The notes beneath the pieces were generated by a model. The model searched no databases and was not told where the DNA came from. It saw only the letters and a program-made list of their open reading frames with translations. DNA of 53,152 bases from a virus, in the IMG/VR virus record IMGVR_UViG_3300029118_000008. The stretch is one strand, 5' to 3'. This document shows, piece after piece, positions 7,919 through 53,152 of this stretch (position 1 is its first letter; each line of letters starts with the position of its first letter). The position numbers and the translations under genes were made by a program.

Positions 7919-7947
7919 TTGACATCAACGTAAAGTTGATGTATAAT
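7919..7947 (+). promoter_or_regulatory. Perfect consensus promoter with the palindrome CATCAAC-N5-GTTGATG in the spacer
   Basis: TTGACA at 7919-7924, N17, TATAAT at 7942-7947. The inverted repeat spans 7923-7941. Confidence 0.6.
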
Positions 7948-18036: not shown

Positions 18037-18758
18037 CGTTAGGCAGTCTTTTTGATGGGAGCGGAGGTTTTCCTCTTGCGGGGGCGCTCTCCGGAATCCG
18101 CCCGGTCTGGGCGGCGGAGGTGGAGCCGTACCCCATTGCGGTGACGCGCTCCCGCTTTCCCATGATGCAGCACCTCGGCAGCGTGACCGAGGTGCATGGC
18201 GACAAGGTACAGCCGGTGGATGTGATTACGTTCGGAAGCCCTTGCCAAGACCTTTCTGTTGCTGGCAAGCGCGCAGGCATCCATGACGGTCAGCGCTCGA
18301 ATCTGTTTTTTGAAGCAATCCGAATTATAAAGGAAATGAGGGCAGCAACTAATGGACGGTATCCAACTTTCGCTGTTTGGGAAAACGTGCCCGGAGCCTT
18401 CTCTTCAAACCAGGGAGAGGACTTCCGATGCGTCCTCCAAGAGTTTGTTGGAATCTGCGGGAACGGCACAGTACCTCGACCTGACAAAGGCAAATGGAAA
18501 TCAGCCGGAGAGGTCGTGGGCGACGGATACAGCGTCGCGTGGCGGCAACTCGACGCGCAATACTGGGGAGTGCCCCAGCGTCGCAAGAGAATCTACCTTG
18601 TGGCAGATTTTGCAGGCGGACGCGCCGGAAAAATACTATTTGAGCGCGAGGGCCTGCAAGGGCATCCTGCGGCGTGCGGAACGACGGGGCAAGGCGCTGC
18701 CGCCGATGCTCCTGGAAGCGCTGGAGGAAGCCGTGGCATTGAATGCTGGAAACGTTAA
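18033..18758 (+). CDS. dcm: DNA (cytosine-5) methyltransferase, N-terminal catalytic part (motifs I, IV, VI, VIII)
   Basis: LFDGSGG (I), GSPCQDLS (IV), WENVPG (VI), QRRKR (VIII). After ~18660 the frame decays into A/G-rich sequence and stops at 18758. Confidence 0.8.
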   Translation: MTLGSLFDGSGGFPLAGALSGIRPVWAAEVEPYPIAVTRSRFPMMQHLGSVTEVHGDKVQPVDVITFGSPCQDLSVAGKRAGIHDGQRSNLFFEAIRIIKEMRAATNGRYPTFAVWENVPGAFSSNQGEDFRCVLQEFVGICGNGTVPRPDKGKWKSAGEVVGDGYSVAWRQLDAQYWGVPQRRKRIYLVADFAGGRAGKILFEREGLQGHPAACGTTGQGAAADAPGSAGGSRGIECWKR

Positions 18759-19509
18759 AAGCGCGCAGCAGCCGAATTGCGTCTGCTATCCGCAGGTTGC
18801 CCGGACGCTGACGGCAGAAGCGGATGCGTCCACCTGCATCGACCGTGGCCAGAACGTTGTGTGCTACGACGCATGCGGGAACGGCGACGGGGCGCACTGC
18901 CAGACGTTGACCGGTGACCACGAGAACCGCGTGACGGATTACACGGCGGTCACAGTATATCGCAGCCCGAAAATTGGAGAGTATGCCGCTGATGGCACAG
19001 CATCCACAATGGCAGCGCGAGATTTCAAAAGTCCTCGCGATTTGGTTGTCGAACATACTCCCGTCTACGGCATGGACTGCCGAAACGCCGTATTGGACGA
19101 AGAAAAAACGCACACGCTGCAAGCCAAGGCGAATGGCGAACAAAGCCTGAACTGTACGCCCAGCGTTTTGATGGACGGAAGGCCGCCGCGCAAGTACATC
19201 ATCCGCCGCCTGACGCCGCTGGAATGCTGCCGCTTGCAGGGCTTCCCCGACGGGTGGGGCGTCCCCGACCACAAGGACAGGCTGTCAGAGGAAGAGCTGG
19301 CGTTCTGGCAAGGAGTGCGCGACACTTGCTCGCTCATCGCGGGCAAACCGTCCAAGAAATACAGCGCGGAAACGCTGACCAAGTGGTATAACGCCCTGCA
19401 CACGGATAGTGCAGAGTACAAAATGTGGGGCAACGGCATCGCACTTCCATGCGCGGCGTTCGTGTTGGGCGGCGTCGCCGAAACCCTGATGGAGGAAAAG
19501 CAAAAATGA
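18352..19509 (+). CDS. dcm: DNA (cytosine-5) methyltransferase, target-recognition + C-terminal part (motifs IX, X), in the +1 frame
   Basis: PEKYYLSARACKGILRRAERRGKALP, RRLTPLECCRLQGFPDGW (IX), WGNGIALP (X). The true N-terminus is unknown: a frameshift junction or a TTG start at 18598. Confidence 0.7.
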   Translation: MDGIQLSLFGKTCPEPSLQTRERTSDASSKSLLESAGTAQYLDLTKANGNQPERSWATDTASRGGNSTRNTGECPSVARESTLWQILQADAPEKYYLSARACKGILRRAERRGKALPPMLLEALEEAVALNAGNVKSAQQPNCVCYPQVARTLTAEADASTCIDRGQNVVCYDACGNGDGAHCQTLTGDHENRVTDYTAVTVYRSPKIGEYAADGTASTMAARDFKSPRDLVVEHTPVYGMDCRNAVLDEEKTHTLQAKANGEQSLNCTPSVLMDGRPPRKYIIRRLTPLECCRLQGFPDGWGVPDHKDRLSEEELAFWQGVRDTCSLIAGKPSKKYSAETLTKWYNALHTDSAEYKMWGNGIALPCAAFVLGGVAETLMEEKQK

Positions 19510-20048
19510 AAAAGTACGAACTGACAGGCGAAACAAAAGAAATCGGCGGAAAGATTCTGCATCGCATCCGTGCGCTGATTGATATTCCGGAGCACGACGT
19601 GAAGGCTGGTGACTTGGGCGGCTGGATTGAGGCGGAGAAAAATCTGTCGCAAAACGGCGCAGCGTGGGTAACTGGCGAGGCGTTGGTGATGGGTTCGGCG
19701 CGCGTGATGGATTCGGCGTGGGTGATGGGTTCGGCGCGCGTGATGGGTTCGGCGCGCGTGATGGATTCGGCGCGCGTGATGGATTCGGCGTGCGTGATGG
19801 GTTCGGCGCGCGTGATGAAGTCGTCTGACTGCATCACCATCGGAGCAATCGGAAGCCGTGACGGCACAACCACTTTTTACCGTTGCGAAGATGAGAAAAT
19901 ATACGTTTCCTGCGGATGCTTCAGCGGCTCGATTGACGACTTTGCCGCAAAAGTCAAGGCAGTCCACGCCGGGACGAAGCACGAAAGGACGTATCTGCTG
20001 GCAATCGAACTGGCGAAGGCGCAGCTTGGGACGACGGAGGAGGAGTGA
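19506..20048 (+). CDS. Hexapeptide-repeat (left-handed beta-helix / bactofilin-like) phage protein
   Basis: MKKYELTGETKEIGGKILHRIRAL..., then eight (G/D)SA(R/W/C)VM hexapeptides. Confidence 0.6.
   Translation: MKKYELTGETKEIGGKILHRIRALIDIPEHDVKAGDLGGWIEAEKNLSQNGAAWVTGEALVMGSARVMDSAWVMGSARVMGSARVMDSARVMDSACVMGSARVMKSSDCITIGAIGSRDGTTTFYRCEDEKIYVSCGCFSGSIDDFAAKVKAVHAGTKHERTYLLAIELAKAQLGTTEEE
19686..19817 (+). repeat. In-frame 18-nt tandem repeat (7 full units plus a partial one)
   Basis: gtgatgg(g/a)ttcggcg(c/t)g(c/g) units begin at 19686, 19704, 19722, 19740, 19758, 19776 and 19794. Confidence 0.9.
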
Positions 20049-21625: not shown

Positions 21626-21739
21626 GCAAAAATCGCAAAAAAATGTGATTTGCCCCTTGACATATACGGTAGTATATGCTATAATAAATAGTGTCAAGGG
21701 GCGGTAAAAAAGAACCCCGGACAGAAAGAGGTAAGAAAA
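21623..21739 (+). promoter_or_regulatory. Cassette copy 1: A-tract upstream element + perfect promoter + conserved 5' leader hairpin + SD
   Basis: tttgcaaaaatcgcaaaaaaatgtgatttgcc. TTGACA at 21657-62, N17 (containing CATATAC-N4-GTATATG), TATAAT at 21680-85. Leader atagtgtcaaggggcggtaaaaaagaaccccggacagaaagaggtaag. Confidence 0.7.
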
Positions 21740-22051
21740 ATGGAAAAAACTCGTAAGTTGGACGTAGAAAGTCAGTACGACCATTTCGTTGTGGAAATCG
21801 AAGTCGTTGACGGAGTTTGCGATGGCTATCGCAGTTTTATCGCCGCTTGTGACGGCGCTTATTACGACGGAAGTTCCTATAAATACGACGGAAGTTCCTA
21901 TAAAGAAGCAAAAGCGATGTATGATAAACTCGCCAAATACGAAGACGGCATACATGGTGCCGTTATTTTGATAGCGCACAACATCGAGTGCGATGATTGG
22001 GATACGCTGGAAACAAACGAAATCAATGATGTTTGTCAGGACGAAGAATAA
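21740..22051 (+). CDS. Small acidic orphan protein with an internal YDGSSYK duplication
   Basis: 103 aa, D/E-rich, ending ...CDDWDTLETNEINDVCQDEE. First gene behind cassette copy 1. Confidence 0.6.
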   Translation: MEKTRKLDVESQYDHFVVEIEVVDGVCDGYRSFIAACDGAYYDGSSYKYDGSSYKEAKAMYDKLAKYEDGIHGAVILIAHNIECDDWDTLETNEINDVCQDEE

Positions 22052-22140
22052 CCATGCACCCGCCCGGAGGTACGAGGGCAAAAGGAGGAAATGCGCAATG
22101 CTTTGCAACCAGAAGGATTTTGTAAACCTGCGTAGACTAT

Positions 22141-22223
22141 TTGACATATACGGCAGTATATGCTATAATAATAGTGTCAGAAGGGCGGTACAAAAAAAGC
22201 CCCCGACAGAAAGAGGTAAGACA
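22141..22223 (+). promoter_or_regulatory. Cassette copy 2: perfect promoter + conserved leader
   Basis: TTGACA at 22141-46, N17 (CATATACGGCAGTATATG), TATAAT at 22164-69. Leader aatagtgtcagaagggcggtacaaaaaaagcccccgacagaaagaggtaag. Confidence 0.7.
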
Positions 22224-22649
22224 ATGACTGATAAAGCAAAAAGCGCGGCGCTGTTTGAACAGCACCGCCAAATGACCAAGGCGTGGGAAGCGCAAATGGA
22301 CGCACTCGCCAAAGAAGAAAGCATCACCGACGAGGAATACGAACAGAAGCTCATGGAGCTTTACAATCAACACAAAGAAAAAGCGGATGCGGTTTGGCTG
22401 AAAGCGTTTGCACTGCGATTTCCGAAGCGCAAGGGCTGGTTCGCGGACGTTTTCGCGCCTTCGTTCGGGATTTGCGAAAACAAGAAACTTTCGCCGAAGC
22501 AAACACAAGTGTTCATCGACTACTGCATCAGTGATGCGGATACATGGCGGAATGGCAATACGTACTGCCGGTTTGGAGACAAGCTGGTAACGCTCACTCG
22601 CCCGCGTTACGCAAATGGATGCGGGTACGTTACAATAAGGCAACTGTAA
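22224..22649 (+). CDS. Orphan protein (141 aa)
   Basis: ATG at 22224 lies 6 nt after the conserved AGAGGTAAG. The longer ORF-track reading (from 21993) would run through the promoter. Confidence 0.6.
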   Translation: MTDKAKSAALFEQHRQMTKAWEAQMDALAKEESITDEEYEQKLMELYNQHKEKADAVWLKAFALRFPKRKGWFADVFAPSFGICENKKLSPKQTQVFIDYCISDADTWRNGNTYCRFGDKLVTLTRPRYANGCGYVTIRQL

Positions 22650-22841
22650 ATGAATGGAAGGGAAAACACAGTGATGCTGACGCTGACGAAGGAAGAATAC
22701 AGAGAGCTTAAAAAGCATGGTCATCTTGAAAAAAATGGTTTCGTGTACAGCCACATTGCAACGCTGGACGGGAAAATGGTCGCAGTCTGCGAAAGAGCAA
22801 ATGATTTGGACTACATCGTAGAGGTGAAGCGTGAAAAGTAA
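22650..22841 (+). CDS. Small hypothetical protein (63 aa)
   Basis: Starts immediately after the previous stop. Confidence 0.45.
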   Translation: MNGRENTVMLTLTKEEYRELKKHGHLEKNGFVYSHIATLDGKMVAVCERANDLDYIVEVKREK

Positions 22842-22896
22842 CAGCTTGCAAAATCAACCATCATATGCTACAATATCCCCGAAAGGGGTTGTGGCA

Positions 22897-23115
22897 ATGC
22901 GTAAAGAGTATTACCAAGGGGACATTTCCGTCCGCGCGATGAAGAAGTACCGCGAAAAAGAAGGAATCAAGACGGTGCGCTTCGACGTTCGCGCTGGGAG
23001 CAAAGAGGCGCTGGAAGAAGAAGCAAAGCGCCGCGGTATCTCGGTGGCGCAGCTAATCGTTGATTCCGTAAACGCTTATGTCGGGCGTGCGATAATTACC
23101 AACAGAAAACAATAA
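22897..23115 (+). CDS. RHH-like small DNA-binding protein (Aca-like position)
   Basis: KTVRFDVRAGSKEALEEEAKRRGISVAQLIVDSVNAYV fits a strand-helix-helix pattern. It has its own TTGCAA-N17-TACAAT promoter upstream and a terminator follows. Confidence 0.45.
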   Translation: MRKEYYQGDISVRAMKKYREKEGIKTVRFDVRAGSKEALEEEAKRRGISVAQLIVDSVNAYVGRAIITNRKQ

Positions 23116-23123
23116 TAGCATGG

Positions 23124-23150
23124 GGCGCATCCGCTGGGGTGCGCCTTTTT
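23124..23150 (+). terminator. Rho-independent terminator
   Basis: GGCGCA-tccgctgggg-TGCGCC followed by TTTTT. Confidence 0.7.
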
Positions 23151-23164
23151 CGTTGCGCAAAAAG

Positions 23165-23284
23165 TTTGCAAAAATCGCAAAAAAAATGTGATTTGCCTCT
23201 TGACATATACGGCAGTATATGCTATAATAATAGTGTCAGGAGGGCGGTACAAATAAAAGCCCCCGACAGAAAGAGGTAAGAATT
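23165..23284 (+). promoter_or_regulatory. Cassette copy 3: upstream element + perfect promoter + conserved leader
   Basis: tttgcaaaaatcgcaaaaaaaatgtgatttgcc. TTGACA at 23200-05, N17, TATAAT at 23223-28. Leader aatagtgtcaggagggcggtacaaataaaagcccccgacagaaagaggtaag. Confidence 0.7.
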
Positions 23285-23494
23285 ATGAAGTTCGCGAGCA
23301 TCAAGAAGGGCATCCGCATCACCGAGGAAATGAAAAAGAAGCTGGCAGCCAATTGGTTCTGCGAAACGAAAACGTACTGCTACGAGTTGCAGTACGGGGA
23401 CGAAACGATGGATGGCGACTACGAGCGCAGCATCGTTCGCTGGAAGAAAGGCGAAGAGTACAAGCCTTCCGAAGTCGTTGCAACGCTGGCGTGA
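23285..23494 (+). CDS. Small orphan protein (69 aa)
   Basis: First gene behind cassette copy 3. Confidence 0.55.
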   Translation: MKFASIKKGIRITEEMKKKLAANWFCETKTYCYELQYGDETMDGDYERSIVRWKKGEEYKPSEVVATLA

Positions 23495-23516
23495 ACAGGA
23501 AGGAGGAGCAAGCACC

Positions 23517-23828
23517 ATGTCAAACGAAGAAATCATCGCCAAGTCCGCCATCAGCGCGGGCATCTTCTCCGAAGAGGAAGCCGCAGCCTACATCATGAAC
23601 GGGTTGCGCCTCCCGATTCACACCTTCGCCGAGTGGAAGAATCACGGGTACATGGTTAAAAAGGGCGAACACGCCGCGCTGGTCGTGAGCATCTGGAAGC
23701 CCAAGACGCGCAAGCAGAAGAAGGACGACGAAAAGAACGTTGACGCAAAGGAAGAAAATAGCGGGTTCTTCATGACGACCGCCTACTTGTTCACCAAGCA
23801 GCAGGTGGAAGCAATCAAGCCCGCATAA
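23517..23828 (+). CDS. ArdC-N-terminal-like (ssDNA-binding, anti-restriction-type) protein
   Basis: PIHTFAEWKNHGYMVKKGEHAALVVSIWK resembles the (T/W)FxQWxxxGxxVxKGEK core of the ArdC N-domain. ATG after AGGAAGGAGGAG. Confidence 0.35.
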   Translation: MSNEEIIAKSAISAGIFSEEEAAAYIMNGLRLPIHTFAEWKNHGYMVKKGEHAALVVSIWKPKTRKQKKDDEKNVDAKEENSGFFMTTAYLFTKQQVEAIKPA

Positions 23829-23838
23829 TCGCAACAAA

Positions 23839-24056: not shown

Positions 24057-24169
24057 TTGGAAGAGGCGACTATGGAAGTGCTGCTCTTGCCTCTTCAGCG
24101 GCGGGATTTATGCGCGATGCGCTTTGTTGCGTTGGTGGGGACGCGACGGAAGAAGAGGAGGGAAAACCA

Positions 24170-24679
24170 TTGCTTGACTGGAACGGCATCAAAATCGTCG
24201 AAACGGATTGTATGCTGCCGATTGACCGCGTGAAACCATACGCGAGAAACGCAAAGCGGCATCCGCAGGAGCAAATCGACGAAATCAAGGCAAGCATCAA
24301 GCGGTTCGGAATGGACGACCCCATCGGCATCTGGGGCAAGGAAAACCTGATTGTAGAGGGTCACGGGCGGATGGAAGCGTGCAAGCAGCTCGGCATCCCC
24401 ACAGTGCCGTGCATTCGCCTTGACCACCTGACGAAGGAAGAGCGCAAGGCGTACACACTGGCGCACAACAAAACCAACATGGACAGCGGCTGGGACTTTA
24501 CGGCGCTCGACCAAGAGCTGGCGGAAATCGTTGATATTGACATGAGCGAGTTCGGTTTCGGTGCTTCCGTGGGGGGGCAAGAAGTCAACATTGACGAGCT
24601 GTTTGCGGCAAATGGAGAAGAGAAAAAGAAAACCAAAACTATAACATGTCCTCATTGCGGGCAAACTTTCGAGCCATAA
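24170..24679 (+). CDS. ParB/Srx N-terminal-domain protein with a C-terminal zinc ribbon (DpdB-like position)
   Basis: LPIDRVKPYARNAKRHPQEQIDEIKASIKRFGMDDPI...IVEGHGRMEACKQLG is a ParBc-type pattern. C-terminal ITCPHCGQ. TTG at 24170 after GAGGAGGG. Confidence 0.65.
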   Translation: MLDWNGIKIVETDCMLPIDRVKPYARNAKRHPQEQIDEIKASIKRFGMDDPIGIWGKENLIVEGHGRMEACKQLGIPTVPCIRLDHLTKEERKAYTLAHNKTNMDSGWDFTALDQELAEIVDIDMSEFGFGASVGGQEVNIDELFAANGEEKKKTKTITCPHCGQTFEP

Positions 24680-25518
24680 TGCGAATTTTTCTAGCTGGGG
24701 GGGTATCTGGGAATCTCAAACCGCTATGGGATGATGTTGCAGAAGGGAAAGACTTATCGGAAGCGATGAATGTTTTTTTAGCTGGGAATGCTCCTTATAG
24801 GAATGAAGGCTTATACGATACAACAATCACAACAAACCGCCCATATATTCTCGAATCGTTCTATTACGCAGATGCAACAACAGAAAAGCTCATTCCATAT
24901 TACGGCGACTTTCTATTGGACAGCGGAGCTTTCACATTTATGATGGGAAGCAAAAATTGCAAAACGTTAAAATGGAACGAATATGCTGATAAATACGCTG
25001 ACTTTATTAAGCGAAATAACGCAAAAAAGTACTTCGAGCTTGACATAGACAGCATCGTTGGATATGAGCAAGTAAAAATCCTGCGAAATCGCTTGCAAAA
25101 AACTACTGGCATTCAGCCGATACCCGTATGGCATAAAAGCCGCGGGAAAGACGAATTTTTGCGGATGGTTGACGAGTACAAGTACGTCGCACTCGGTGGA
25201 ATCGTCAGCAAAGAATGGAGCAAAGATGAACACAAATTCTTTCCGTGGTTCATCAATGAAGCGCATAAGCGCAATGCCAAAATCCACGGTTTGGGTTACA
25301 CAAGCCTCGAAGGATTGAAGAAATATCATTTTGATAGCGTAGATTCGACAGCATGGACGACTGGAAATAGATTTGGGTACATTTACAAATTTGATGGTTC
25401 GACTATGAAGAAATATGATGCTCCGCAAGGGCATAGATTAGCAGATTCACGCAAAGCCGCGCTAATTAACTTTGGCGAATGGGTGAAATTTCAAAAATAT
25501 GCGGAGGTGCATTTGTGA
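24679..25518 (+). CDS. dpdA: DpdA-family (tRNA-guanine-transglycosylase-like) DNA 7-deazaguanine transglycosylase
   Basis: FLLDSGAFTFM (TGT catalytic-Asp motif xDSGGF), YVALGGIVS (LGGL-like) and HFDSVDSTAW (FDCV-like). TAATG overlap with the ParB-like gene. Confidence 0.65.
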   Translation: MRIFLAGGVSGNLKPLWDDVAEGKDLSEAMNVFLAGNAPYRNEGLYDTTITTNRPYILESFYYADATTEKLIPYYGDFLLDSGAFTFMMGSKNCKTLKWNEYADKYADFIKRNNAKKYFELDIDSIVGYEQVKILRNRLQKTTGIQPIPVWHKSRGKDEFLRMVDEYKYVALGGIVSKEWSKDEHKFFPWFINEAHKRNAKIHGLGYTSLEGLKKYHFDSVDSTAWTTGNRFGYIYKFDGSTMKKYDAPQGHRLADSRKAALINFGEWVKFQKYAEVHL

Positions 25519-25751
25519 ATTATGAAATCGTCGGAATCATAGCCACCATTGTGGTTTTGCTTTCCTTCACAAAGACAAAATGTGAAAGAATCAGAATCGT
25601 AAATATGGTTGGTGCGGCAATATATTGCCTGTATGGGCATCTAATCAAGTCACCAAGCACGATAATCCTGAACGGTGCATTGATAGCTATACATACATTT
25701 TTTCTCGTTAAGAAAGTGAGGGAACCACATGAAAAACCACAAGACTTCTGA
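25515..25751 (+). CDS. Small 3-TM membrane protein (SemiSWEET/YgjV-like topology)
   Basis: Three hydrophobic helices in 78 aa. GTG at 25515 lies 7 nt after GGAGG and overlaps the dpdA stop (GTGA). Confidence 0.45.
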   Translation: MNYEIVGIIATIVVLLSFTKTKCERIRIVNMVGAAIYCLYGHLIKSPSTIILNGALIAIHTFFLVKKVREPHEKPQDF

Positions 25752-26373
25752 ACTCCAAACGGTTCTTACCGTTACTTTTGTTGCTTGTTTCTTGATTGCA
25801 AACATTCTTGCAGGGAAACAGTTCCAATTGCCATTCGGCATCACGATGACGGGTGCAGTAATAATCTTTCCGATGACGTATATTCTTTCGGATATATTTT
25901 CAGAGGTGTACGGTTATCGGTGGAGCAGATTAACGTGTTACATGGCATTCGGGGCAAATATCCTGATGGCTATTGTATTTGCCATTGCTATCGCGCTTCC
26001 TGCTGCGCCATTCTGGATGAACCAAGAAGGATTTTCCGCGACGTTAGGCAACGCGCCGCGAATCCTGCTTGCGTCGCTGGCGGGATATGTCGTCGGTGAT
26101 TACGCAAACGATATTGTGTTCCAGATAATGAAAAAAAAGCACGAAAACACAATTAAGGGGTTCGGCAGCAGGGCAATTCTTTCAAGCGTTATCGGTGAAC
26201 TCGCAGATAGCACAATTTTCATCCCGATTGCGTTTGCCGGAGAAATGCCTATCGAATCAATGCTTATCATGGGTGCAACACAGGTTATTCTAAAAGTCGC
26301 CTATGAAATCATCATTCTACCACTGACAAATTTTGTTGTCAAGAGGGTATCCGTGCATGAAGCAAGAGCCTGA
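25729..26373 (+). CDS. yhhQ: YhhQ/VUT-family queuosine-precursor (preQ0/preQ1) transporter
   Basis: Polytopic membrane protein. IANILAGKQF...GAVIIFPMTYILSDIFSEVYGYRWSR and ...SSVIGELADSTIFIPIAF match the DUF165/YhhQ family pattern. Confidence 0.7.
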   Translation: MKNHKTSELQTVLTVTFVACFLIANILAGKQFQLPFGITMTGAVIIFPMTYILSDIFSEVYGYRWSRLTCYMAFGANILMAIVFAIAIALPAAPFWMNQEGFSATLGNAPRILLASLAGYVVGDYANDIVFQIMKKKHENTIKGFGSRAILSSVIGELADSTIFIPIAFAGEMPIESMLIMGATQVILKVAYEIIILPLTNFVVKRVSVHEARA

Positions 26374-46648: not shown

Positions 46649-47023
46649 ATGGAAAGCCTCACCGCTGATAAACTGATTCTGGCGCTGGGCGTGATCCTCG
46701 TCCTGCTGGGAGCATACAACACATTTTACACCGCGCGGAAAAATGCGCGAGATGAACGCAAGAGACAGGAGCAGCCAACAAACGCGCTGGCATCCAGCGT
46801 ATCAGACATCAATCGCAAGCTGGACACAGACAAACGCCGCCTTGATGGGCACGAAGAGCGCATCGGCGGCTTGCGTGACGGACTGATGGTAACGTGCGCC
46901 GGAGTACAGGCACTTTTGGAGCATGAGTTACACAACGGCAACGCCGACGAAATGACGGCGGCAAGCAGGGAAATTGATAATTGGTTGAGGGGCAACGCCC
47001 TAAAGGGAGGAAATGCAAAATGA
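46649..47023 (+). CDS. Lysis-associated membrane protein (N-terminal TM + coiled coil)
   Basis: LILALGVILVLLGAYNTFY TM segment followed by a charged helix. Lies between the endolysin and holin genes. Confidence 0.45.
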   Translation: MESLTADKLILALGVILVLLGAYNTFYTARKNARDERKRQEQPTNALASSVSDINRKLDTDKRRLDGHEERIGGLRDGLMVTCAGVQALLEHELHNGNADEMTAASREIDNWLRGNALKGGNAK

Positions 47024-47241
47024 GTGAGAATTTGAAGCGCAAGCTGACAAGCCGCAAGTTCTGGGCGGCAGTTGTATCCTTTGTAACCATGCTGATTATG
47101 GCGTTCGGCGTTGCGGATGAAACCGCAACACAGGTCGGCAGCATCATCATGGCGGGTGCTACGGTTATCGCCTACATCATCGGTGAGGGCATGACGGACG
47201 CGGCGGCGGTCACAGAGGGCAAGGACAAACCGAAGGAGTAA
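47020..47241 (+). CDS. Holin
   Basis: 73 aa, KLTSRKFWAAVVSFVTMLIMAF...IIMAGATVIAYIIGEG. Two TM segments and a charged C-terminus. ATGA overlap. Confidence 0.65.
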   Translation: MSENLKRKLTSRKFWAAVVSFVTMLIMAFGVADETATQVGSIIMAGATVIAYIIGEGMTDAAAVTEGKDKPKE

Positions 47242-47244
47242 CGT

Positions 47245-47496
47245 ATGAGCCGCGAAGTCGTATGGACAAAAGCGGTTGTAGATGCTTTTGTGGATGAAGC
47301 CTGTTTGTCGGATGAAGAAGAGCTGATTATCAGGTCGCGGGCAAAAGGCTGGACACGCACAAAGCAGTCGATGCAGTACAATATGAGCATTCGCAAGATT
47401 GACTATATTATACACACGCTAAAAACCAAGTACGACGAGGCGCAAAAATACTCCGAAATTTTACCCAAAAGGAATATAAAGAAAGCCGGGACGTAA
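47245..47496 (+). CDS. Small sigma-region-4/LuxR-type HTH protein
   Basis: SDEEELIIRSRAKGWTRTKQSMQYNMSIRKIDYIIHTLKTK. Confidence 0.45.
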   Translation: MSREVVWTKAVVDAFVDEACLSDEEELIIRSRAKGWTRTKQSMQYNMSIRKIDYIIHTLKTKYDEAQKYSEILPKRNIKKAGT

Positions 47497-47512
47497 TGTC
47501 CCGGTATTTTTT
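47486..47512. terminator. Bidirectional rho-independent terminator between the late operon and minus-strand island II
   Basis: CCGGGAC-gtaat-GTCCCGG followed by TATTTTTT, with an A-rich 5' flank. Confidence 0.7.
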
Positions 47513-47520
47513 GTTGCGCA

Positions 47521-48114
47521 CTATTCTTGAGCCTGACGCTTGCACTCAACGTCAAGTTCTGGATATACCCCTGCGATTTTCGCAAGGGTTTCGCTTTTTA
47601 GGCGATGGTACAGCTCTTCCTTGCCGACAAGCCAGAACAGGTCAAGCAATTTGTCGTCATATTCACAGAGGTTATGGCGGATGAAATTAACCATCCAGCG
47701 TTCCAGCGTCTCGGTGTTCGGGGACAATATATCCACATTGCCATGCTCCAAATACCATTCTTGCTTTGCGTTCAGCGTCGCCTCTTCCAGAACGGACATA
47801 TCCCAGCGCGTAACGTGGATGGAAGCAATGAGGTCATCGGCAATAGCTTCGGCGTTCTTTCGCTTCGTTTCGACGGCTTTTGCGGACGCTGCTTTTCGTG
47901 CGGCTGCTTTTGCCGCCATCGTCTGGAACTCCTGCGTCTCCATGGCGGAACGTACATCTTCCTCGCGCCATAACTTCATGGGCGCGGCGGATGCGTAGCG
48001 CGGATTCCGTTTGAGGACGGGCGGCGGCAGCAGCTTTTCTATCATGGACTTGGTGAAGCCCATGGACAGAACTGCCGATTGCGAAATAAGCTGTTCCTTC
48101 TGCTTTTCCGGCAT
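47521..48114 (-). CDS. Hypothetical protein (197 aa)
   Basis: ATG after AAGGGGG. Last gene of a minus-strand operon. Confidence 0.55.
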   Translation of the reverse strand: MPEKQKEQLISQSAVLSMGFTKSMIEKLLPPPVLKRNPRYASAAPMKLWREEDVRSAMETQEFQTMAAKAAARKAASAKAVETKRKNAEAIADDLIASIHVTRWDMSVLEEATLNAKQEWYLEHGNVDILSPNTETLERWMVNFIRHNLCEYDDKLLDLFWLVGKEELYHRLKSETLAKIAGVYPELDVECKRQAQE

Positions 48115-48148: not shown

Positions 48149-48967
48149 CTATTTTTTGTTTATTTTTAATACCTCGTCTATTGCCGCACGACTTTCGTCA
48201 GAAACCTTCTTCCCATTTTCGTAATTTCGTATTGTTCTTTCGGATAAATGCACGATTTCCGATAGCCGTGCAACGGTAAAGCCCGCTGCAATTCGCGCCT
48301 TGCTTGCTTCTGTTTTCTCTTTTCGATACTTTCTCGGCTTTTCAAGCGAACCGTGTTGCTTCTTTGCTGGCAGATTAGAGGCTTTAAGCGCCTTTGCATC
48401 CGCGCAAGCATCGGAACAATATACTCTGTGCGCTTTATTGGGCGTAAATATCTTTCCGCAAGTTGGGCATAAACGAACGCGTATTTCCGCCATCTTCTTT
48501 TGCGTCTCACCACGCGATTCTTTCCGCCTCTGATTTGTCTTCTCAGCGTTTTTTTTATAGTAATCCAGCGCGCGCTTGCGCGTTTGCTCTGCCGCGCAAT
48601 CTGGACACATTACTTGCTTTCCACTGTTTATAATATACGGTTTTCCGCAAATCTCGCAGTAGGCAGTTCCGCCGATTACACGACTTTTCCCATTTTTCTT
48701 TCGTTCTTCATACTCTTTTTTCCTTTTTTTCTTCGCCGCCACGTTGCAAGTCGGACAACGCTTTGAGCGCGGATAACCCATGTATTTTGCGCCGCAATCC
48801 TCGCAGACCTTCTCCTTTATTGTTTCGTGTATATTAAAATGCCCTTTTCCTAATAAGGCATTTGCTTCTTTTGATTCCTTCTTTTTCATCTCAATAGCGC
48901 ATTGCGGGCAGCAGAAGTACTCCTGCTGCCCGGATAATGGTTTCCCACAGTTTTCGCAAAGCCTCAC
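48149..48967 (-). CDS. Multi-zinc-ribbon protein with a C-terminal XRE-type HTH
   Basis: At least five CxxC...CxxC pairs (CENCGK..CCPQC, CEDCGA..CPTC, CEICGK..CPDC, CPTCGK..CSDAC), then FTVARLSEIVHLSERTIRNYENG. Confidence 0.6.
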   Translation of the reverse strand: MRLCENCGKPLSGQQEYFCCPQCAIEMKKKESKEANALLGKGHFNIHETIKEKVCEDCGAKYMGYPRSKRCPTCNVAAKKKRKKEYEERKKNGKSRVIGGTAYCEICGKPYIINSGKQVMCPDCAAEQTRKRALDYYKKNAEKTNQRRKESRGETQKKMAEIRVRLCPTCGKIFTPNKAHRVYCSDACADAKALKASNLPAKKQHGSLEKPRKYRKEKTEASKARIAAGFTVARLSEIVHLSERTIRNYENGKKVSDESRAAIDEVLKINKK

Positions 48968-49263
48968 TCTTTAAGCCCCCACATCTCCAGCGTATCGTCG
49001 ATATACTCGGTGTCGCTTTCGTTGCATTCCTTCCAAGGGGTTCTGGGGTCGCCGATAATCGCTTCGATTTTAGCGATTGTCTCTTCTGCCCATTTGCTAC
49101 CATCCTCTTCAAGGTCATTCAGCGCGACAGGATTCCCTTCCGTCGTGAGAATCCACTCACCATAGACGGGTTCGACACCCACATACAGCGTGTAGGTGAG
49201 ACCTTCTTCAGAGCCACAGAACTCGTAGATTTCGGTGTTCTCGTTAACAATAACCTTCTTCAT
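48964..49263 (-). CDS. Small acidic orphan protein (99 aa)
   Basis: ATG at 49263 behind cassette copy 4. By my count, 24 D/E against 7 K/R. Confidence 0.6.
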   Translation of the reverse strand: MKKVIVNENTEIYEFCGSEEGLTYTLYVGVEPVYGEWILTTEGNPVALNDLEEDGSKWAEETIAKIEAIIGDPRTPWKECNESDTEYIDDTLEMWGLKE

Positions 49264-49390
49264 AATGCTTACCTCTTTCTGTCCGGAGCTTTTATTTTGC
49301 ATCGCCCCTTGACACTATGTATTATAGCACAAGATATATACTTTGTCAATATCTTTTTGGGGTTTTCCGCAAGTTTTTTGCAACTTCCAC
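49264..49390 (-). promoter_or_regulatory. Cassette copy 4 (minus strand): upstream A-tract element + perfect promoter + conserved leader
   Basis: Read on the minus strand: gttgcaaaaaacttgcggaaaaccccaaaaagata-TTGACA(49349-44)-N17-TATAAT(49326-21)-acatagtgtcaaggggcgatgcaaaataaaagctccggacagaaagaggtaagcatt-ATG. Confidence 0.7.
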
Positions 49391-49392
49391 TC

Positions 49393-49554
49393 CTATTCCT
49401 TCCGCACTCTTTCCGCCAGCCACTCCGAGATTGCAAGCCGAATGACAGCCGAATCGTTCAGGCTTAACTTTTTTGCTACGTCCTTAATCTGCGCATTCTG
49501 CTCTTTCGTCAGAATTACGCACTTTGCAACCTTGTTACCGTTTTCACTAATCAT
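49393..49554 (-). CDS. RHH (CopG/Arc-like) protein, 53 aa (not in the ORF track)
   Basis: My translation: MISENGNKVAKCVILTKEQNAQIKDVAKKLSLNDSAVIRLAISEWLAERVRKE. ATG lies 8 nt after GGAGGAG. Confidence 0.6.
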   Translation of the reverse strand: MISENGNKVAKCVILTKEQNAQIKDVAKKLSLNDSAVIRLAISEWLAERVRKE

Positions 49555-49561
49555 CTTCTTG

Positions 49562-49993
49562 TTACTCCTCCTTTCTGGGGCTGCCGTAAATCGGCTTACA
49601 CCAATTGCCCATGCTTCCGACCACCACCTGCGGCAAGTAACCGCCTGTGGTGCGGTCGTAGTGCATCAGCGTCAGCTCAATGCCGCGATACACGCAGCCA
49701 CGGATAACCGCCGCCACGCAAGCGGTCAGTCCCGTGACGTAGACGACCAGCGGGTGATTGCCCGTTGTCACCTCGATGTCCGCGTACTCGTTGTCGTTGA
49801 ATCGAGTACCATAATTGGACAAATGTGTCCCCACACGATTGTCAAGGAACGCGTCGACCGTCCGCGACATAGCGCGGAAGTCCGTGGGGTCTACCTCCAT
49901 TTGGAAGATAAACTCGTCCACGGGCATGTCGTGCCGCCCAGCACACAGACCGACGACGACGGCATTGGAAGGAATTTGAAAAGTAAAGTCCAT
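49562..49993 (-). CDS. Orphan alpha/beta-looking protein (143 aa)
   Basis: ATG at 49993 after AGAGGA. VVVGLCAGRHDMP...LVVYVTGLTACVAAVIRG...HYDRTTGGY. No family recognised. Confidence 0.55.
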   Translation of the reverse strand: MDFTFQIPSNAVVVGLCAGRHDMPVDEFIFQMEVDPTDFRAMSRTVDAFLDNRVGTHLSNYGTRFNDNEYADIEVTTGNHPLVVYVTGLTACVAAVIRGCVYRGIELTLMHYDRTTGGYLPQVVVGSMGNWCKPIYGSPRKEE

Positions 49994-50085
49994 AATATTT
50001 CCTCTCGCTTTCTGCCCTCGTAACCTCCGGGGCGGGTGCATGGTTATTCTTCGTCCGGGGGCCTTTTTGTACACTATGTATTATA
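49994..50085 (-). promoter_or_regulatory. Cassette remnant (copy 5): -10 box and truncated leader without a -35, plus a 55-nt segment repeated at 22039-22091
   Basis: Read on the minus strand: TATAAT(50085-80)-acatagtgtacaaaaaggcccccggacgaagaataaccatgcacccgccccggaggttacgagggcagaaagcgagaggaaatatt-ATG. Confidence 0.5.
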
Positions 50086-50119
50086 GCACAAGCATTCTGC
50101 CGGGCGTGCGCCCGGAGCA

Positions 50120-50497
50120 TCAAAGCTCTGCAAGCCAGCGGGTTGCACCGAAGCCGAAGTCACGTTCCAGCTCTTCACGCAGGCAGTACTGCTCTGCGTC
50201 CTCATCTGCCTCCAACCACTCCGTGTCATCCAGCAGTTCCGCTGGAACATTGCGGTCGTCGGTTAGGTACTGCTCCAGCCACATTTCTTGCCCCAGAATA
50301 GCCTCCTTCATGCCACTGTCGGGCTCCAGCATTTCATCCCAACTATCGAAGAATAAGGGGTCGCCGTTCGTTTCGACACACACGCTTCCCGTCGCCGTGT
50401 CGAGGAGGATGTGTCCTCCTTCTTCCCAATTCCCATCGTAGTCCTCGTAGTGGTACGCAGTCACGCGCACCCGCTGCTTCAAAATCGTCTTTTCCAT
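50120..50497 (-). CDS. Strongly acidic orphan protein (125 aa; DNA-mimic-like composition)
   Basis: By my count, 33 D/E against 9 K/R. First gene behind cassette copy 6. Confidence 0.6.
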   Translation of the reverse strand: MEKTILKQRVRVTAYHYEDYDGNWEEGGHILLDTATGSVCVETNGDPLFFDSWDEMLEPDSGMKEAILGQEMWLEQYLTDDRNVPAELLDDTEWLEADEDAEQYCLREELERDFGFGATRWLAEL

Positions 50498-50625
50498 ACG
50501 TTACCTCTTTCTGTCGGGGGCTTTATTTTTTTTGCACCGCCCCTTGACACTATTATTATATCACAAGATATATACTTTGTCAATACCTTTTTGAGGTTTT
50601 CCGCAAGTTTTTTTGCAACTTTCCA
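50498..50625 (-). promoter_or_regulatory. Cassette copy 6 (minus strand): upstream element + perfect promoter + conserved leader
   Basis: Read on the minus strand: gttgcaaaaaaacttgcggaaaacctcaaaaaggta-TTGACA(50583-78)-N17-TATAAT(50560-55)-aatagtgtcaaggggcggtgcaaaaaaaataaagcccccgacagaaagaggtaacgt-ATG. Confidence 0.7.
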
Positions 50626-50689
50626 GCGTTTTGTCTGCATTTCCCAACCGCCAGAATCGCCTATACTATAATCAGTAGGAGGTGGTGCG

Positions 50690-51067
50690 GTGTATATCCA
50701 CTACAACCCTAATCCGCACGGCTTGCGTGTCGGGGATTGCGCTGTCCGCGCAGCATCCAAGGCAGCAGGGAAAACGTGGGGAAGCGCCTATGCGGCACTC
50801 TGTGCGCTGGGTTATGACTGCGGAGACATGCCAAACGCCAACCACGTTTGGGGACGTTACTTGCATGAGCGCGGATTCACGCGCCACGCCCTGCCGGATA
50901 CTTGTCCAATCTGCTATACTGTCGCGGATTTCTGCCGTGAACATCCGCGCGGGGTGTACGTCCTCGGCATCGGCGACCACGTTGTGTGTGCCGTAGACGG
51001 TGACTGGTACGACGCATGGGATAGCGGCGCGGAAATACCAGCGTATTACTGGAAGAGGGGGAACTGA
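50690..51067 (+). CDS. Small papain-like (Cys-His) peptidase-fold protein
   Basis: GDCAVRAASKA (candidate nucleophile Cys) and GIGDHVVCAVDGDWYDAWD (candidate His/Asp). GTG after AGGAGGTGG. Confidence 0.4.
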   Translation: MYIHYNPNPHGLRVGDCAVRAASKAAGKTWGSAYAALCALGYDCGDMPNANHVWGRYLHERGFTRHALPDTCPICYTVADFCREHPRGVYVLGIGDHVVCAVDGDWYDAWDSGAEIPAYYWKRGN

Positions 51068-51070
51068 TGT

Positions 51071-51511
51071 ATGGCGTATGGTTATCCACAATATTATCCA
51101 CAGATTCCGTATTATAACGCGCAGCAGACGGCAATGCCAGACCAGCTTGCGCAGCTTCGAGCAGCACAGCAGCCGATGATGCAGCAGCCATCGCAGCCAT
51201 CAAGCAACGGACTGATTTGGGTGCAGGGGGAAGCCGGAGCGAAAAGTTACCTTGTCGCCAACGGTTCGAGCGTTCTCTTGATGGATAGCGAGAAGCAGAC
51301 GTTTTACATCAAGTCAGCGGACGCGGCAGGAATGCCGTCCATGCGCACGTTTGATTATACGGAGCGCAACGCATCCGTAAAGCCATCCAGCAGCGCGCAG
51401 GACGCGCCGGAGTACGTGACGCGGGACGAACTCAACACGCTTACAAAGCGCCTTGAAGCCCTTGAGGGGCGCAAGAAGAAGGGGGTAACGCAGGATGAAC
51501 CCACTGTTTAA
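51071..51511 (+). CDS. Protein with a Y/P/Q-rich N-terminus, a small beta domain and a C-terminal coiled coil
   Basis: MAYGYPQYYPQIPYYNAQQ...QQPMMQQPSQP, then GLIWVQGEAGAKSYLVANGSSVLLMD. Confidence 0.5.
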   Translation: MAYGYPQYYPQIPYYNAQQTAMPDQLAQLRAAQQPMMQQPSQPSSNGLIWVQGEAGAKSYLVANGSSVLLMDSEKQTFYIKSADAAGMPSMRTFDYTERNASVKPSSSAQDAPEYVTRDELNTLTKRLEALEGRKKKGVTQDEPTV

Positions 51512-51713
51512 CGCACTCGGCGGCGGGCAGATGCCCGGAGCTATTGGCGACTTCCAGCGGATGATGCAGCAGTTTCAGCAGTTTCGCGCGACGTTTCAGG
51601 GCGACCCTGAGCAGGAGGTTCGCAAACTGATTGCATCTGGAAAAATCTCGCAAAACCAGCTTAATCAGCTTCAACAGGCGGCGCAGATGTTTCAATCGTT
51701 CCTCGGTTCTTAA
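51495..51713 (+). CDS. Small Q-rich helical protein
   Basis: FQRMMQQFQQFRATFQ...QNQLNQLQQAAQMFQ. Confidence 0.45.
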   Translation: MNPLFNALGGGQMPGAIGDFQRMMQQFQQFRATFQGDPEQEVRKLIASGKISQNQLNQLQQAAQMFQSFLGS

Positions 51714-51776
51714 CTTTGGCTATCATTGTTGCGCAACAATTTAGCATAAACTTCAAATTCCGAAAGGAGAAAAACA

Positions 51777-52529
51777 ATGAGTATGACCTCGGAACTCTCC
51801 GCTTCTGACGTGGCTCTGCTTTCCGGCAGAAACAGCAACCAGAACGGCGACGGCTTCTTTGGTGGCAATGGCGCATACTGGATTATTATCCTCTTCCTCT
51901 TCGTCTTCTGCGGATGGGGCAATAACGGATGGGGTGGCTTTGGCAATCGCAACGGTGGACAGGGTTCTGTCATGGACGGTTACGTCCTCACCTCCGACTT
52001 CGCCAATATCGAGCGGAAAATCGACAACGTGAACAGCGGCTTGTGTGATGGATTCTATGCACAGGCGCAGCTCACCAATGGCGTACAGATGCAGATGGCA
52101 AACGGCTTTGCGCAGGCGGAACTCTCGCGCGCCAATCAGCAGACCGCGCTGATGCAGCAGCTTAACGCGATGCAGGCACAGGCGGCGGATTGCTGCTGCA
52201 AGACGCAGACGGCAATCCAGGGCGTGAACTACAACCTTGCCACTCAGGCTTGCGACACTCGCAACACCATTCAGAGCGGCGTTCGCGACATTTTGGACAA
52301 CGCCAACGCTAACGCCCGAGCGGTGATTGACGCACTGACGGCACAGCGCATCGAGGCGAAGGACGAGAAGATTGCGGCGCAGAATCAGCAGATTTTCGGC
52401 TTGCAGCTTGCCGCGTCTCAGGCGGCGCAGAATCAGTATCTTGTAAATACGATTCGTCCTTGCCCTGTCCCGGCGTACACGGTAGCCAATCCGTTCTGTT
52501 GCAATCAGGCGCAGTATTGCGCTGGTTAA
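51777..52529 (+). CDS. Membrane protein with a G/N/W-rich juxtamembrane region, a Q/A/N-rich coiled coil and Cys clusters
   Basis: TM segment AYWIIILFLFVFCGW flanked by GNNGWGGFGNRNGGQG. Cys clusters: CCCK, CPVP and FCCNQAQYC. Confidence 0.55.
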   Translation: MSMTSELSASDVALLSGRNSNQNGDGFFGGNGAYWIIILFLFVFCGWGNNGWGGFGNRNGGQGSVMDGYVLTSDFANIERKIDNVNSGLCDGFYAQAQLTNGVQMQMANGFAQAELSRANQQTALMQQLNAMQAQAADCCCKTQTAIQGVNYNLATQACDTRNTIQSGVRDILDNANANARAVIDALTAQRIEAKDEKIAAQNQQIFGLQLAASQAAQNQYLVNTIRPCPVPAYTVANPFCCNQAQYCAG

Positions 52530-52636
52530 GCTCCAGACAGCTTCCTGCTGCCTGTGCAGGATGATCCGACAAACGGCAACTGAAAAAGCGGCGGGGCGTT
52601 GATTGATTCGCGCCCTGCCGCTGAAAGGAGAAAATC

Positions 52637-53062
52637 ATGGCTGAATATACTGCGGCGGCGGCTCAAACCGTCGCCAATGGCAACAACGTCCTTTTTACTG
52701 CAACGCCCGTCTGCGCAACGCGCTGCATCGTCCATCGTGAGGGGTCTGGCATCGTGACACTGCGAGGCATCACCAACGGACAGTGCCGCGCACGTTTCCG
52801 CGTCAATTTTGGCGGCAATATCGCCATTCCGACGGGCGGCACTGCCGGAGCTATCTCTGTCGCGCTTGCAATCGCGGGTGAGGTGCTTCCGGCTTCTACC
52901 GCCATCGTCACCCCTGCGGCGGCGGCACAATACCAGAACGTCAGCGTCGACACCTTTGTTGACGTTCCGGCGGGGTGCTGCACGACCATCAGCGTCAAAA
53001 ATACCGCTGGCGTGGATATTGACGTGCAGAATGCCAACCTGATTGTCACGCGCGTTGCGTGA
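52637..53062 (+). CDS. TNF/C1q-like all-beta protein resembling exosporium BclA-C-terminal / BxpB (ExsF)-type domains
   Basis: IVTLRGI...ARFRVNFGGNIAIPTGGTAGAISVALAI...TTISVKNTAGVDIDVQNANLIVTRVA. There are no collagen repeats. Confidence 0.35.
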   Translation: MAEYTAAAAQTVANGNNVLFTATPVCATRCIVHREGSGIVTLRGITNGQCRARFRVNFGGNIAIPTGGTAGAISVALAIAGEVLPASTAIVTPAAAAQYQNVSVDTFVDVPAGCCTTISVKNTAGVDIDVQNANLIVTRVA

Positions 53063-53152
53063 GGAAAGGAGAAACGCAATGAAGTATCTTCACGAACTTA
53101 AAGAAAAACTCTGCGAAGAGCTGCAAGAGATTGCGGAGAAGCAGGATATGTC

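Follow-up and report, generated by a model that had tools for sequence, protein, structure and literature searches.

Island II is a minus-strand gene block in IMG/VR virus record IMGVR_UViG_3300029118_000008, a complete circular phage genome of 53,152 nucleotides (the window, analysed over its whole length; bases 1–99 recur at 53054–53152). The block runs from ~50630 to 47486 with plus-strand genes on either side, and its composition skew, inverted relative to most of the genome, fits this orientation. Six genes had been proposed here in a first-pass annotation, and all six open reading frames (ORFs) are present. They form two units: A125 (50120–50497), B143 (49562–49993) and the ribbon–helix–helix (RHH)-like RHH53 (49393–49554), then A99 (48964–49263), Zn272 (48149–48967) and O197 (47521–48114), all on the minus strand. 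The island lies, as claimed, between the lysis genes and integrase-side cargo: a holin (47020–47241) and an endolysin-like gene (together at 45.9–47.2 kb) occupy one flank, and the integrase (1096–2253) lies on the other, across the circular junction. Because an integrase is encoded, we call this siphovirus-like gut phage temperate; it also encodes a DnaB-type helicase. The host is probably a member of the Firmicutes, one B143 relative being annotated from an Oscillospiraceae genome.

Promoter cassettes and variable cargo

Each unit is preceded by a module of ~120 bp. It comprises a curved upstream region of phased A-tracts, the promoter, a leader able to form a 5′ stem-loop, and a ribosome-binding region, GACAGAAAGAGGTAA, that does not vary. 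The window holds five full copies of this module, two in Island II and three in a second block, Island I, together with one partial copy. The Island II promoters, P_A125 (50555–50583, minus strand) and P_A99 (49321–49349, minus strand), both match the consensus at 12 of 12 positions, with TTGACA, a 17-nt spacer and an extended −10 element (TG-n-TATAAT). Exact TTGACA-N17-TATAAT sites number ten genome-wide, five of them belonging to cassettes; the other five lie on the plus strand at 764, 3382, 4937, 6843 and 7919. Upstream of P_A125 (50584–50630, minus strand), the sequence reads as phased A-tracts TTGCAAAAAAAC, TTGCGGAAAACC and TCAAAAAGG, which we infer to be an UP-element-like enhancer.

The leader of the A125 operon folds into a stem-loop at 50512–50549 (minus strand; UGUC..GGGGC paired with GCCCC..GACA, −13.2 kcal/mol, z −1.9), and that of the A99 operon does so at 49280–49314 (minus strand; −11.6 kcal/mol, z −2.1), each followed by the ribosome-binding site GAAAGAGG. 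This hairpin is conserved across all cassettes (−9.4 to −13.2 kcal/mol, z −1.4 to −2.1), lacks a T-run and presumably serves as an mRNA stabiliser. The partial cassette precedes B143 (50071–50088, minus strand) and retains the extended −10 element TGCTATAAT with the start of the leader and no −35; we read it as a recombination scar and possible internal promoter. In the relatives read at this point (L001, L003 and L004), the spacer between A125 and the B gene is ~40 nt long, with no promoter-like site. The only terminator in Island II follows O197, a bidirectional intrinsic element (47485–47505, both strands; 9-bp stem, six GC pairs, T-runs on both strands) placed between O197 and a convergent 83-residue gene (47245–47496, plus strand). 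In both full Island II cassettes, the first gene encodes a small, very acidic protein, A125 or A99.

We compared Island II with 25 related loci. The RHH region is readable in 22 of these, giving 23 typed loci with the window, and the upstream A-tracts are kept in all of their Island II cassettes, whichever RHH allele is present. The flanking genes g146, P3754 and g83 are at least 95% identical, as is the holin except in L014 (73%). The cargo between them differs from locus to locus, which supports the earlier view of the island as a variable accessory hotspot. A125 is missing from L002, L020 and L029. B143 is absent from some loci and swapped in others for alleles of 37–48% identity (B alleles as a whole range from 37 to 100%). 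Other genes are inserted in some relatives: a 334-residue DUF3560 protein, a zinc-ribbon protein of 158 or 165 residues, and further acidic proteins of 88 and 98 residues. The DUF3560 gene (Pfam E 3.5e-9) sits between the B-family gene and the RHH gene in L014 (2316–3320), as well as in L016, L020 and L028, and is truncated in L017, L018, L026 and L029. No relative of Island II was found among GenBank phages by blastn.

One relative, L011, carries in its Island II the acidic 103-residue gene of Island I. In the alignment, the sequence is that of Island II as far as the −10 element and that of Island I from the leader on, which places the crossover in the shared −10/leader core. By this comparison, the core is a site of homologous recombination, and cargo passes through it between the two islands of one genome and between related phages. 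The arrangement resembles the PeSL cassettes of T4-type phages (PMC2839356, PMC4122927), in which variable uncharacterised genes of highly variable regions are flanked by a repeated promoter-plus-stem-loop module, and modules are shuffled by recombination there. Unlike those phages, the Island II phage is temperate, has an integrase and is not T4-type, and its cassette also bears a putative repressor operator. In Island II the promoter comes first and the stem-loop follows within the 5′ leader; the title of the 2014 PeSL paper refers instead to composite promoter–terminator motifs.

RHH alleles and their candidate operators

RHH53, a 53-residue protein, is encoded by the last gene of the A125–B143–RHH unit. 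Its proposed RHH identity is backed by consistent profile matches, all of them under curated cut-offs: RHH_3 over the full length (E=0.0055), RHH_1 (E=0.009–0.018), NCBIfam ORF56 (E=6e-5) and the CopG-like phrog_7325 (E=0.0095). These RHH-type matches agree across alleles. An RHH gene is retained in all 23 loci spanning the region, even where the cargo has been swapped.

Within the spacer of P_A125 lies an 18-bp imperfect palindrome, ACAAAGTATATATCTTGT (50563–50580, minus strand), which we propose as the RHH53 operator; the same palindrome recurs in the spacer of P_A99 (49329–49346, minus strand). The typed loci carry one of two RHH alleles, ~52% identical to each other. Where the 53-residue allele is present (five loci, including the window), all nine promoters bear ACAAAGTATATATCTTGT-type (TATATA-type) palindromes. 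Where the 57-residue allele, RHH57, is present (18 loci), 34/34 promoters bear ACAAGTTGCRCAACTTGT-type palindromes, with ACAAGTTGCACAACTTGT as its candidate operator. Palindrome type thus matches RHH allele at 43 of 43 Island II promoters (Fisher p 1.8e-9, with relatedness not corrected). A125, encoded downstream of the first promoter, keeps 93–100% identity in both allele classes. The two alleles differ in the N-terminal strand; it is this strand of RHH proteins that reads DNA.

Island I has a palindrome of its own, CATATAC-N4-GTATATG, and repeats the pattern. Two alleles of its 94-residue RHH-like protein pair with two palindromes (100 of 105 promoters match, p 6e-15), and here the allele differences are concentrated in the N-terminal strand. 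The mismatches fall in L134, L158 and L159, where the RHH94 allele disagrees with the palindrome of one or two promoters; these loci may be recent recombinants, or could point to cross-regulation by another factor. Separately, among the five exact promoters outside the cassettes, at least one also has a repeat in its spacer: the promoter at 7919–7947 contains the perfect inverted repeat CATCAAC-N5-GTTGATG. Spacer-embedded operators may be a general strategy of this phage.

As read from these alignments, co-variation of allele and operator is the classical signature of repressor–operator specificity pairs, and RHH53 is most likely an Aca-like repressor of both Island II promoters. An acr-aca-like pairing of inhibitor and regulator, suggested in the first-pass annotation for both DNA-binding proteins of the island, fits the RHH protein, given the palindrome in both promoters and the complete allele match. 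It does not extend to Zn272, which is 93–100% identical whichever palindrome type is present. As Zn272 does not vary with operator type, we rejected it as the operator-specific regulator of the cassettes. Lambdoid immunity regions provide a precedent for alternative repressor alleles paired with alternative operators in near-identical genomes. The island RHH alleles likewise pair with alternative operators in near-identical genomes; unlike the lambdoid swaps, these pairs would control accessory cassettes rather than a lysis–lysogeny switch, and the proposed repressor is an RHH protein of ~55 residues.

The closest described system is Aca14, an RHH protein that acts on inverted repeats in two promoters, repressing the operon that encodes it and an adjacent one (PMC13551039). 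Island II shares with this and other acr-aca loci a set of small uncharacterised proteins behind a strong promoter, a small regulator gene placed last, or nearly so, in its operon, and a promoter inverted repeat that recurs in the neighbouring operon, so that one regulator could serve two units. In both cases the regulator is RHH-type rather than helix-turn-helix (HTH)-type, by prediction in Island II. Unlike those loci, Island II contains no known Acr or anti-defence gene by library search (an ArdC N-terminal domain is found only in Island I), places its proposed operator in the −35/−10 spacer with two allelic specificities, and encodes a second DNA-binding protein, the HTH-type Zn272.

We favour a reading of Island II as a strongly variable accessory region made up of two, or perhaps three, expression cassettes that are each self-contained. 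Host RNA polymerase would fire the cassette promoters as soon as phage DNA became available, and each unit would yield a burst of its products: A125, B143 and RHH53 in one case, A99, Zn272 and O197 in the other. The RHH dimer would then bind the palindrome in both promoters and turn them down, an Aca-type negative feedback. In the Island II loci compared, the candidate operator stays matched to the resident RHH allele while cargo is exchanged. The cargo would most likely be early-acting inhibitors of host proteins, serving anti-defence or host take-over; an anti-defence role is plausible. We regard this account (an Aca-like, RHH-regulated, variable accessory island, closest to Aca14, whose cargo is most likely early inhibitors of host proteins) as reasonably probable. 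We would class the locus among Aca-like accessory islands under RHH control, as a new example assembled from mobile promoter cassettes.

Several points weigh against this account. The RHH assignment depends on sub-threshold scores. Linkage confounds the co-variation, with P_A99 less than 100 nt from the RHH gene, and gene conversion could homogenise the two cassette copies. Many of the typed loci are close relatives, and the five mismatched Island I promoters in L134, L158 and L159 mean that matching is not obligatory. No cargo protein matches a known anti-defence family by sequence, nor do the A125 and B143 models by fold. The role of Zn272 is left unexplained, and the same layout in a temperate phage could serve prophage-expressed genes.

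Cargo proteins and competing explanations

The extreme acidity reported for A125 and A99 holds on recount. A125 (125 residues) has 33 Asp/Glu against nine Lys/Arg (net −24, pI 4.05), and A99 (99 residues) has 24 against seven (net −17, pI 4.05). Per residue, these charges amount to −0.19 for A125 and −0.17 for A99 from its true start (−0.14 when called as a 112-residue ORF). Both are far more acidic than other genome ORFs, the next standing at −0.08 against a rough background, in that greedy ORF calling chose a spurious antisense frame over A125. That frame (50040–50441, plus strand, 133 residues) exceeds A125 in length and could mislead any gene caller that goes by length; neither a promoter nor a ribosome-binding site precedes it, and the pattern of conservation favours the minus-strand frame. 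A125 and A99 each have a consensus promoter, the GAAAGAGG ribosome-binding site and an ATG start, and A125 homologues differ by in-frame indels. Ratios of non-synonymous to synonymous substitution (dN/dS) against relatives are 0.09–0.36 for A125 and 0.09–0.19 for A99, indicating purifying selection. On these three grounds (start signals, in-frame indels and low dN/dS), both are real genes.

Neither protein has a sequence or profile match in the five libraries searched (Pfam, PHROGs, PADLOC, NCBIfam and PDB), in line with the earlier remark that they show no sequence similarity to Ocr or ArdA. A125 has only nine homologues, all at least 55% identical, and A99 close homologues only. Paralogy between the two was considered and rejected (BLASTP E=3, hhalign probability 3.8%). 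The AlphaFold model of A125 is confident (predicted local distance difference test (pLDDT) 83.5, pTM 0.78) and predicts a five-stranded β-region, with acidic helices after it at the C terminus; the last 52 residues, which are helical, hold half of the protein's Asp and Glu. A Foldseek comparison with 350,542 PDB chains, a library that includes solved DNA mimics such as ArdA (PMC2731889), gave no significant match (best E 0.25, template-modelling (TM) score ≤0.36). In BFVD the sole match is an uncharacterised phage protein (TM 0.70). We suggest that A125 and A99 would be acidic ligands for host proteins that bind nucleic acids. The pairing claimed for them, an acidic protein followed each time by a DNA-binding protein, is seen for A99, where Zn272 comes directly after with a GTGA overlap of stop and start; A125 is followed by B143, with the RHH gene only after that.

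A narrower proposal makes A125 and A99 true DNA mimics of the Ocr/ArdA type, and its sole basis is composition. Ocr (T7 gp0.3) has 34 acidic and six basic residues in 116 (PMC4872106), close to the 33 and nine of A125, and the two proteins share with Ocr and ArdA a size of ~100–125 residues, an extreme excess of Asp/Glu over Lys/Arg and, on a mobile element, a place first in line after a strong promoter, from which early expression would follow. Both also stand under putative repressor control, half of the acidic residues of A125 lie in its helical C-terminal part, and the lineage carries an ArdC N-terminal domain, a C5 methylase and, in relative L001, type I HsdM/HsdS cargo. Weighing on the other side are the absence of any match to DNA mimics or anti-defence families by sequence or profile, the A125 model with its predicted β-sheet and helices, which has no significant PDB match and a single uncharacterised viral one, and the mutual unrelatedness of A125 and A99. 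Acidity is, moreover, common in small phage accessory proteins: net charges of −8 to −17 are frequent among the products of genes next to B-family genes. Known DNA mimics vary in fold, so the missing fold match is weak evidence either way. We consider mimicry unlikely, though worth keeping in view.

The genes might instead be prophage-expressed morons for superinfection exclusion, lysogenic conversion or host modulation, with the RHH protein setting a steady low expression in the lysogen. The phage is temperate and encodes an integrase, the island sits between lysis genes and integrase-side genes, its promoters are of host sigma-70 type, and transcription opposite to the late genes with a terminator of its own is the classic moron layout. 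However, Island I, which adjoins the replication genes and includes an ArdC-N-type gene, is driven by cassettes of this type as well. Exclusion proteins are often membrane or surface proteins, and inspection of the cargo sequences, made with no membrane or signal-peptide predictor, found no obvious long hydrophobic stretch. Perfect promoters with tight autorepression would also fit a burst followed by shut-off better than constitutive low expression. A moron role for these genes is accordingly improbable in our estimate, to about the same degree as mimicry.

B143 (predicted small α/β fold) carries the motifs GLCAGRHDMP, VYVTGLT and LTLMHYDRxTGxYxPQ. It had been called unclassifiable; it indeed belongs to no named family, and yet it is no orphan, as a profile search retrieves 1,536 related clusters at 50% identity, a large uncharacterised phage family. 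R20 and G88 are invariant, and G15, L16, H21, P24, Y85, T87, L89, H111, Y119 and Q122 nearly so. There is no profile match in Pfam, NCBIfam or PDB (83 family members searched) and no significant match in PHROGs or PADLOC. The family is widespread in IMG/VR phages, including jumbo phages, with neighbours that are not conserved; in many phages its genes sit among arrays of small uncharacterised genes, once near an AcrVA2-like gene. In GTDB genomes we found only two distant matches, both in metagenome-assembled genomes. Among L076, L079, L092 and L101, and P0053, P0061, P0062, P0130 and P0174, minimal members of ~90–96 residues lack the central insert, and others carry a zinc ribbon at the N or C terminus or have an HTH domain fused on; zinc ribbons and HTHs were the only domain fusions seen and are uninformative. 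A conserved A125–B143–RHH triad was considered and rejected: B-family neighbours elsewhere are unrelated, and among the loci A125 occurs without B143 (L011, L017, L018) and a B gene without A125 (L020, L029).

The B143 model (pLDDT 88.2) is a small α/β fold with two predicted helices. Foldseek against PDB gave weak Rossmann-like and CARF matches, among the latter Cam1 (8t65; probability 0.60, TM 0.37); Csm6, Sso2081, Sis0455 and Can2 follow more weakly, all with E of at least 0.24 and TM of at most 0.37. CARF or ring-nuclease proteins make up nine of the top 50 fold matches, none of them significant. The protein may be an enzyme or a sponge that binds nucleotides or phosphate, and we treat the predicted CARF/ring-nuclease link as a lead only. 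We know of no ring-nuclease family with the R-H, TGLT, H, Y and Q motif set. The B143 family resembles the small CARF-like ring nucleases Csx16, Csx20 and Crn1 and the viral AcrIII-1 (PMC12409355) in its size (~90–145 residues), α/β character, conserved loops after two β-strands and carriage by phages. B143 also lies just upstream of an RHH regulator gene, as csx20 lies upstream of aca14. Unlike those proteins, it has non-significant fold matches, no sequence or profile match and only two predicted helices.

The boldest version of the preferred reading would have several new counter-defence families here at once: A125 and A99 as new-fold acidic inhibitors, possibly DNA mimics, directed at host defence proteins that bind nucleic acids, B143 as founding example of its very large phage family, binding or cleaving a phosphate-containing immune signal like a miniature CARF/ring nuclease, and swapped RHH repressor–operator pairs controlling them. 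We rate this combination as distinctly improbable. No counter-defence protein family in Island II is recognisable by the libraries searched.

Zn272 (17 Cys, net +32) has four zinc ribbons with Lys/Arg-rich linkers (CxxC...CxxC at C4/7/19-23, C55/58/71/74, C104/107/121/124 and C167/170/185/189) and a C-terminal XRE-type HTH at residues ~223–258. Five or more ribbons had been proposed, and we find four; the C-terminal HTH stands, several HTH models covering residues 223–258, with HTH_3 scoring 21.3 bits against a Pfam threshold of 23. Its dN/dS against relatives is 0.09–0.25. In L029 a natural in-frame deletion leaves MRLCENCG plus the HTH, and in L005 the gene is frameshifted. No Zn272 relative was found in GTDB genomes. 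O197 (197 residues), the last gene of the A99 operon, is present in 25/25 relatives at 75–96% identity (dN/dS 0.16–0.19), frameshifted in L001, L004 and L024, and has no family match in the five libraries by sequence or profile search. A99 and Zn272 might instead be a closed pair, the acidic protein acting on its own basic, DNA-binding partner (as anti-repressor, chaperone or MqsRA-like toxin–antitoxin), and not a host inhibitor with its regulator; we find this very doubtful. In its favour, the overlap at GTGA hints at coupled translation, the net charges are of opposite sign (−17 and +32), the two are always co-inherited (25 loci), and Zn272 has a weak likeness to MqsA, an antitoxin with a zinc ribbon and an HTH (TIGR03830 E=0.013), and to HipB-type HTHs. 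Against it, the MqsA match is far under threshold (15.3 against 61.8 bits), A99 is acidic (pI 4.05) without a toxin-family match whereas MqsR is a basic RelE-like RNase, and A99 stays intact where Zn272 is HTH-only (L029) or frameshifted (L005), making A99 independent of the zinc-ribbon part.

With an Aca-like accessory island as the preferred account, the two islands, each with two natural candidate pairs of RHH allele and operator in otherwise identical perfect promoters, offer a tractable regulatory system and would bring gut phages of Firmicutes type within the range of the RHH-type Aca regulators, themselves described only recently. They also suggest a practical rule for this lineage, namely that accessory or counter-defence candidates be sought as the first gene behind each cassette. 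For an anti-defence screen, the candidates are A125, A99, the 103-residue acidic protein of Island I and the B143 family.

Island I and other features of the genome

Island I (21657–23830, plus strand) adjoins the replication genes, and its three cassette copies lie at 21.6–23.3 kb. The first gene behind one cassette promoter encodes the very acidic 103-residue protein (21740–22051, plus strand; 25 Asp/Glu, nine Lys/Arg). Another cassette-driven group comprises the 94-residue RHH-like protein (22831–23115, plus strand) together with proteins of 141 and 63 residues, and a 69-residue protein within the island is also cassette-driven (plus strand). A 103-residue protein with an anti-restriction-type ArdC N-terminal domain (23517–23828, plus strand) matches Pfam above threshold (E 6e-7).

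A C5 DNA methylase domain is encoded at 18352–19509. In L001, type I restriction–modification genes for HsdM and HsdS (344–1945 and 1–354) occupy the integrase side of the island; none was seen in the window. A plus-strand cluster at 24110–26373 encodes a ParB-N-like protein, a 290-residue protein without a Pfam match and a Vut_1/YhhQ-type transporter (Pfam E 1e-40), and may be a queuosine-precursor or 7-deazaguanine DNA-modification module.

Between Island II and the integrase side, the plus strand at 50690–53062 carries conserved uncharacterised genes (PHROGs 3754, 21718, 22984, 16490 and 20016). One 250-residue product of this region abounds in Gly, Asn and Gln; its N-terminal half contains a hydrophobic segment and, after it, a stretch with much glycine. 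Adjoining the integrase gene, an AT-rich cluster of direct repeats at 2723–2841 (AAATAGCTxAGCTA-type) could be attP or origin-like. At 19644–19841, an 18-nt tandem repeat of ~8 copies (GCGCGCGTGATGGRTTCG) falls in a GC-rich stretch with overlapping ORFs on the two strands.

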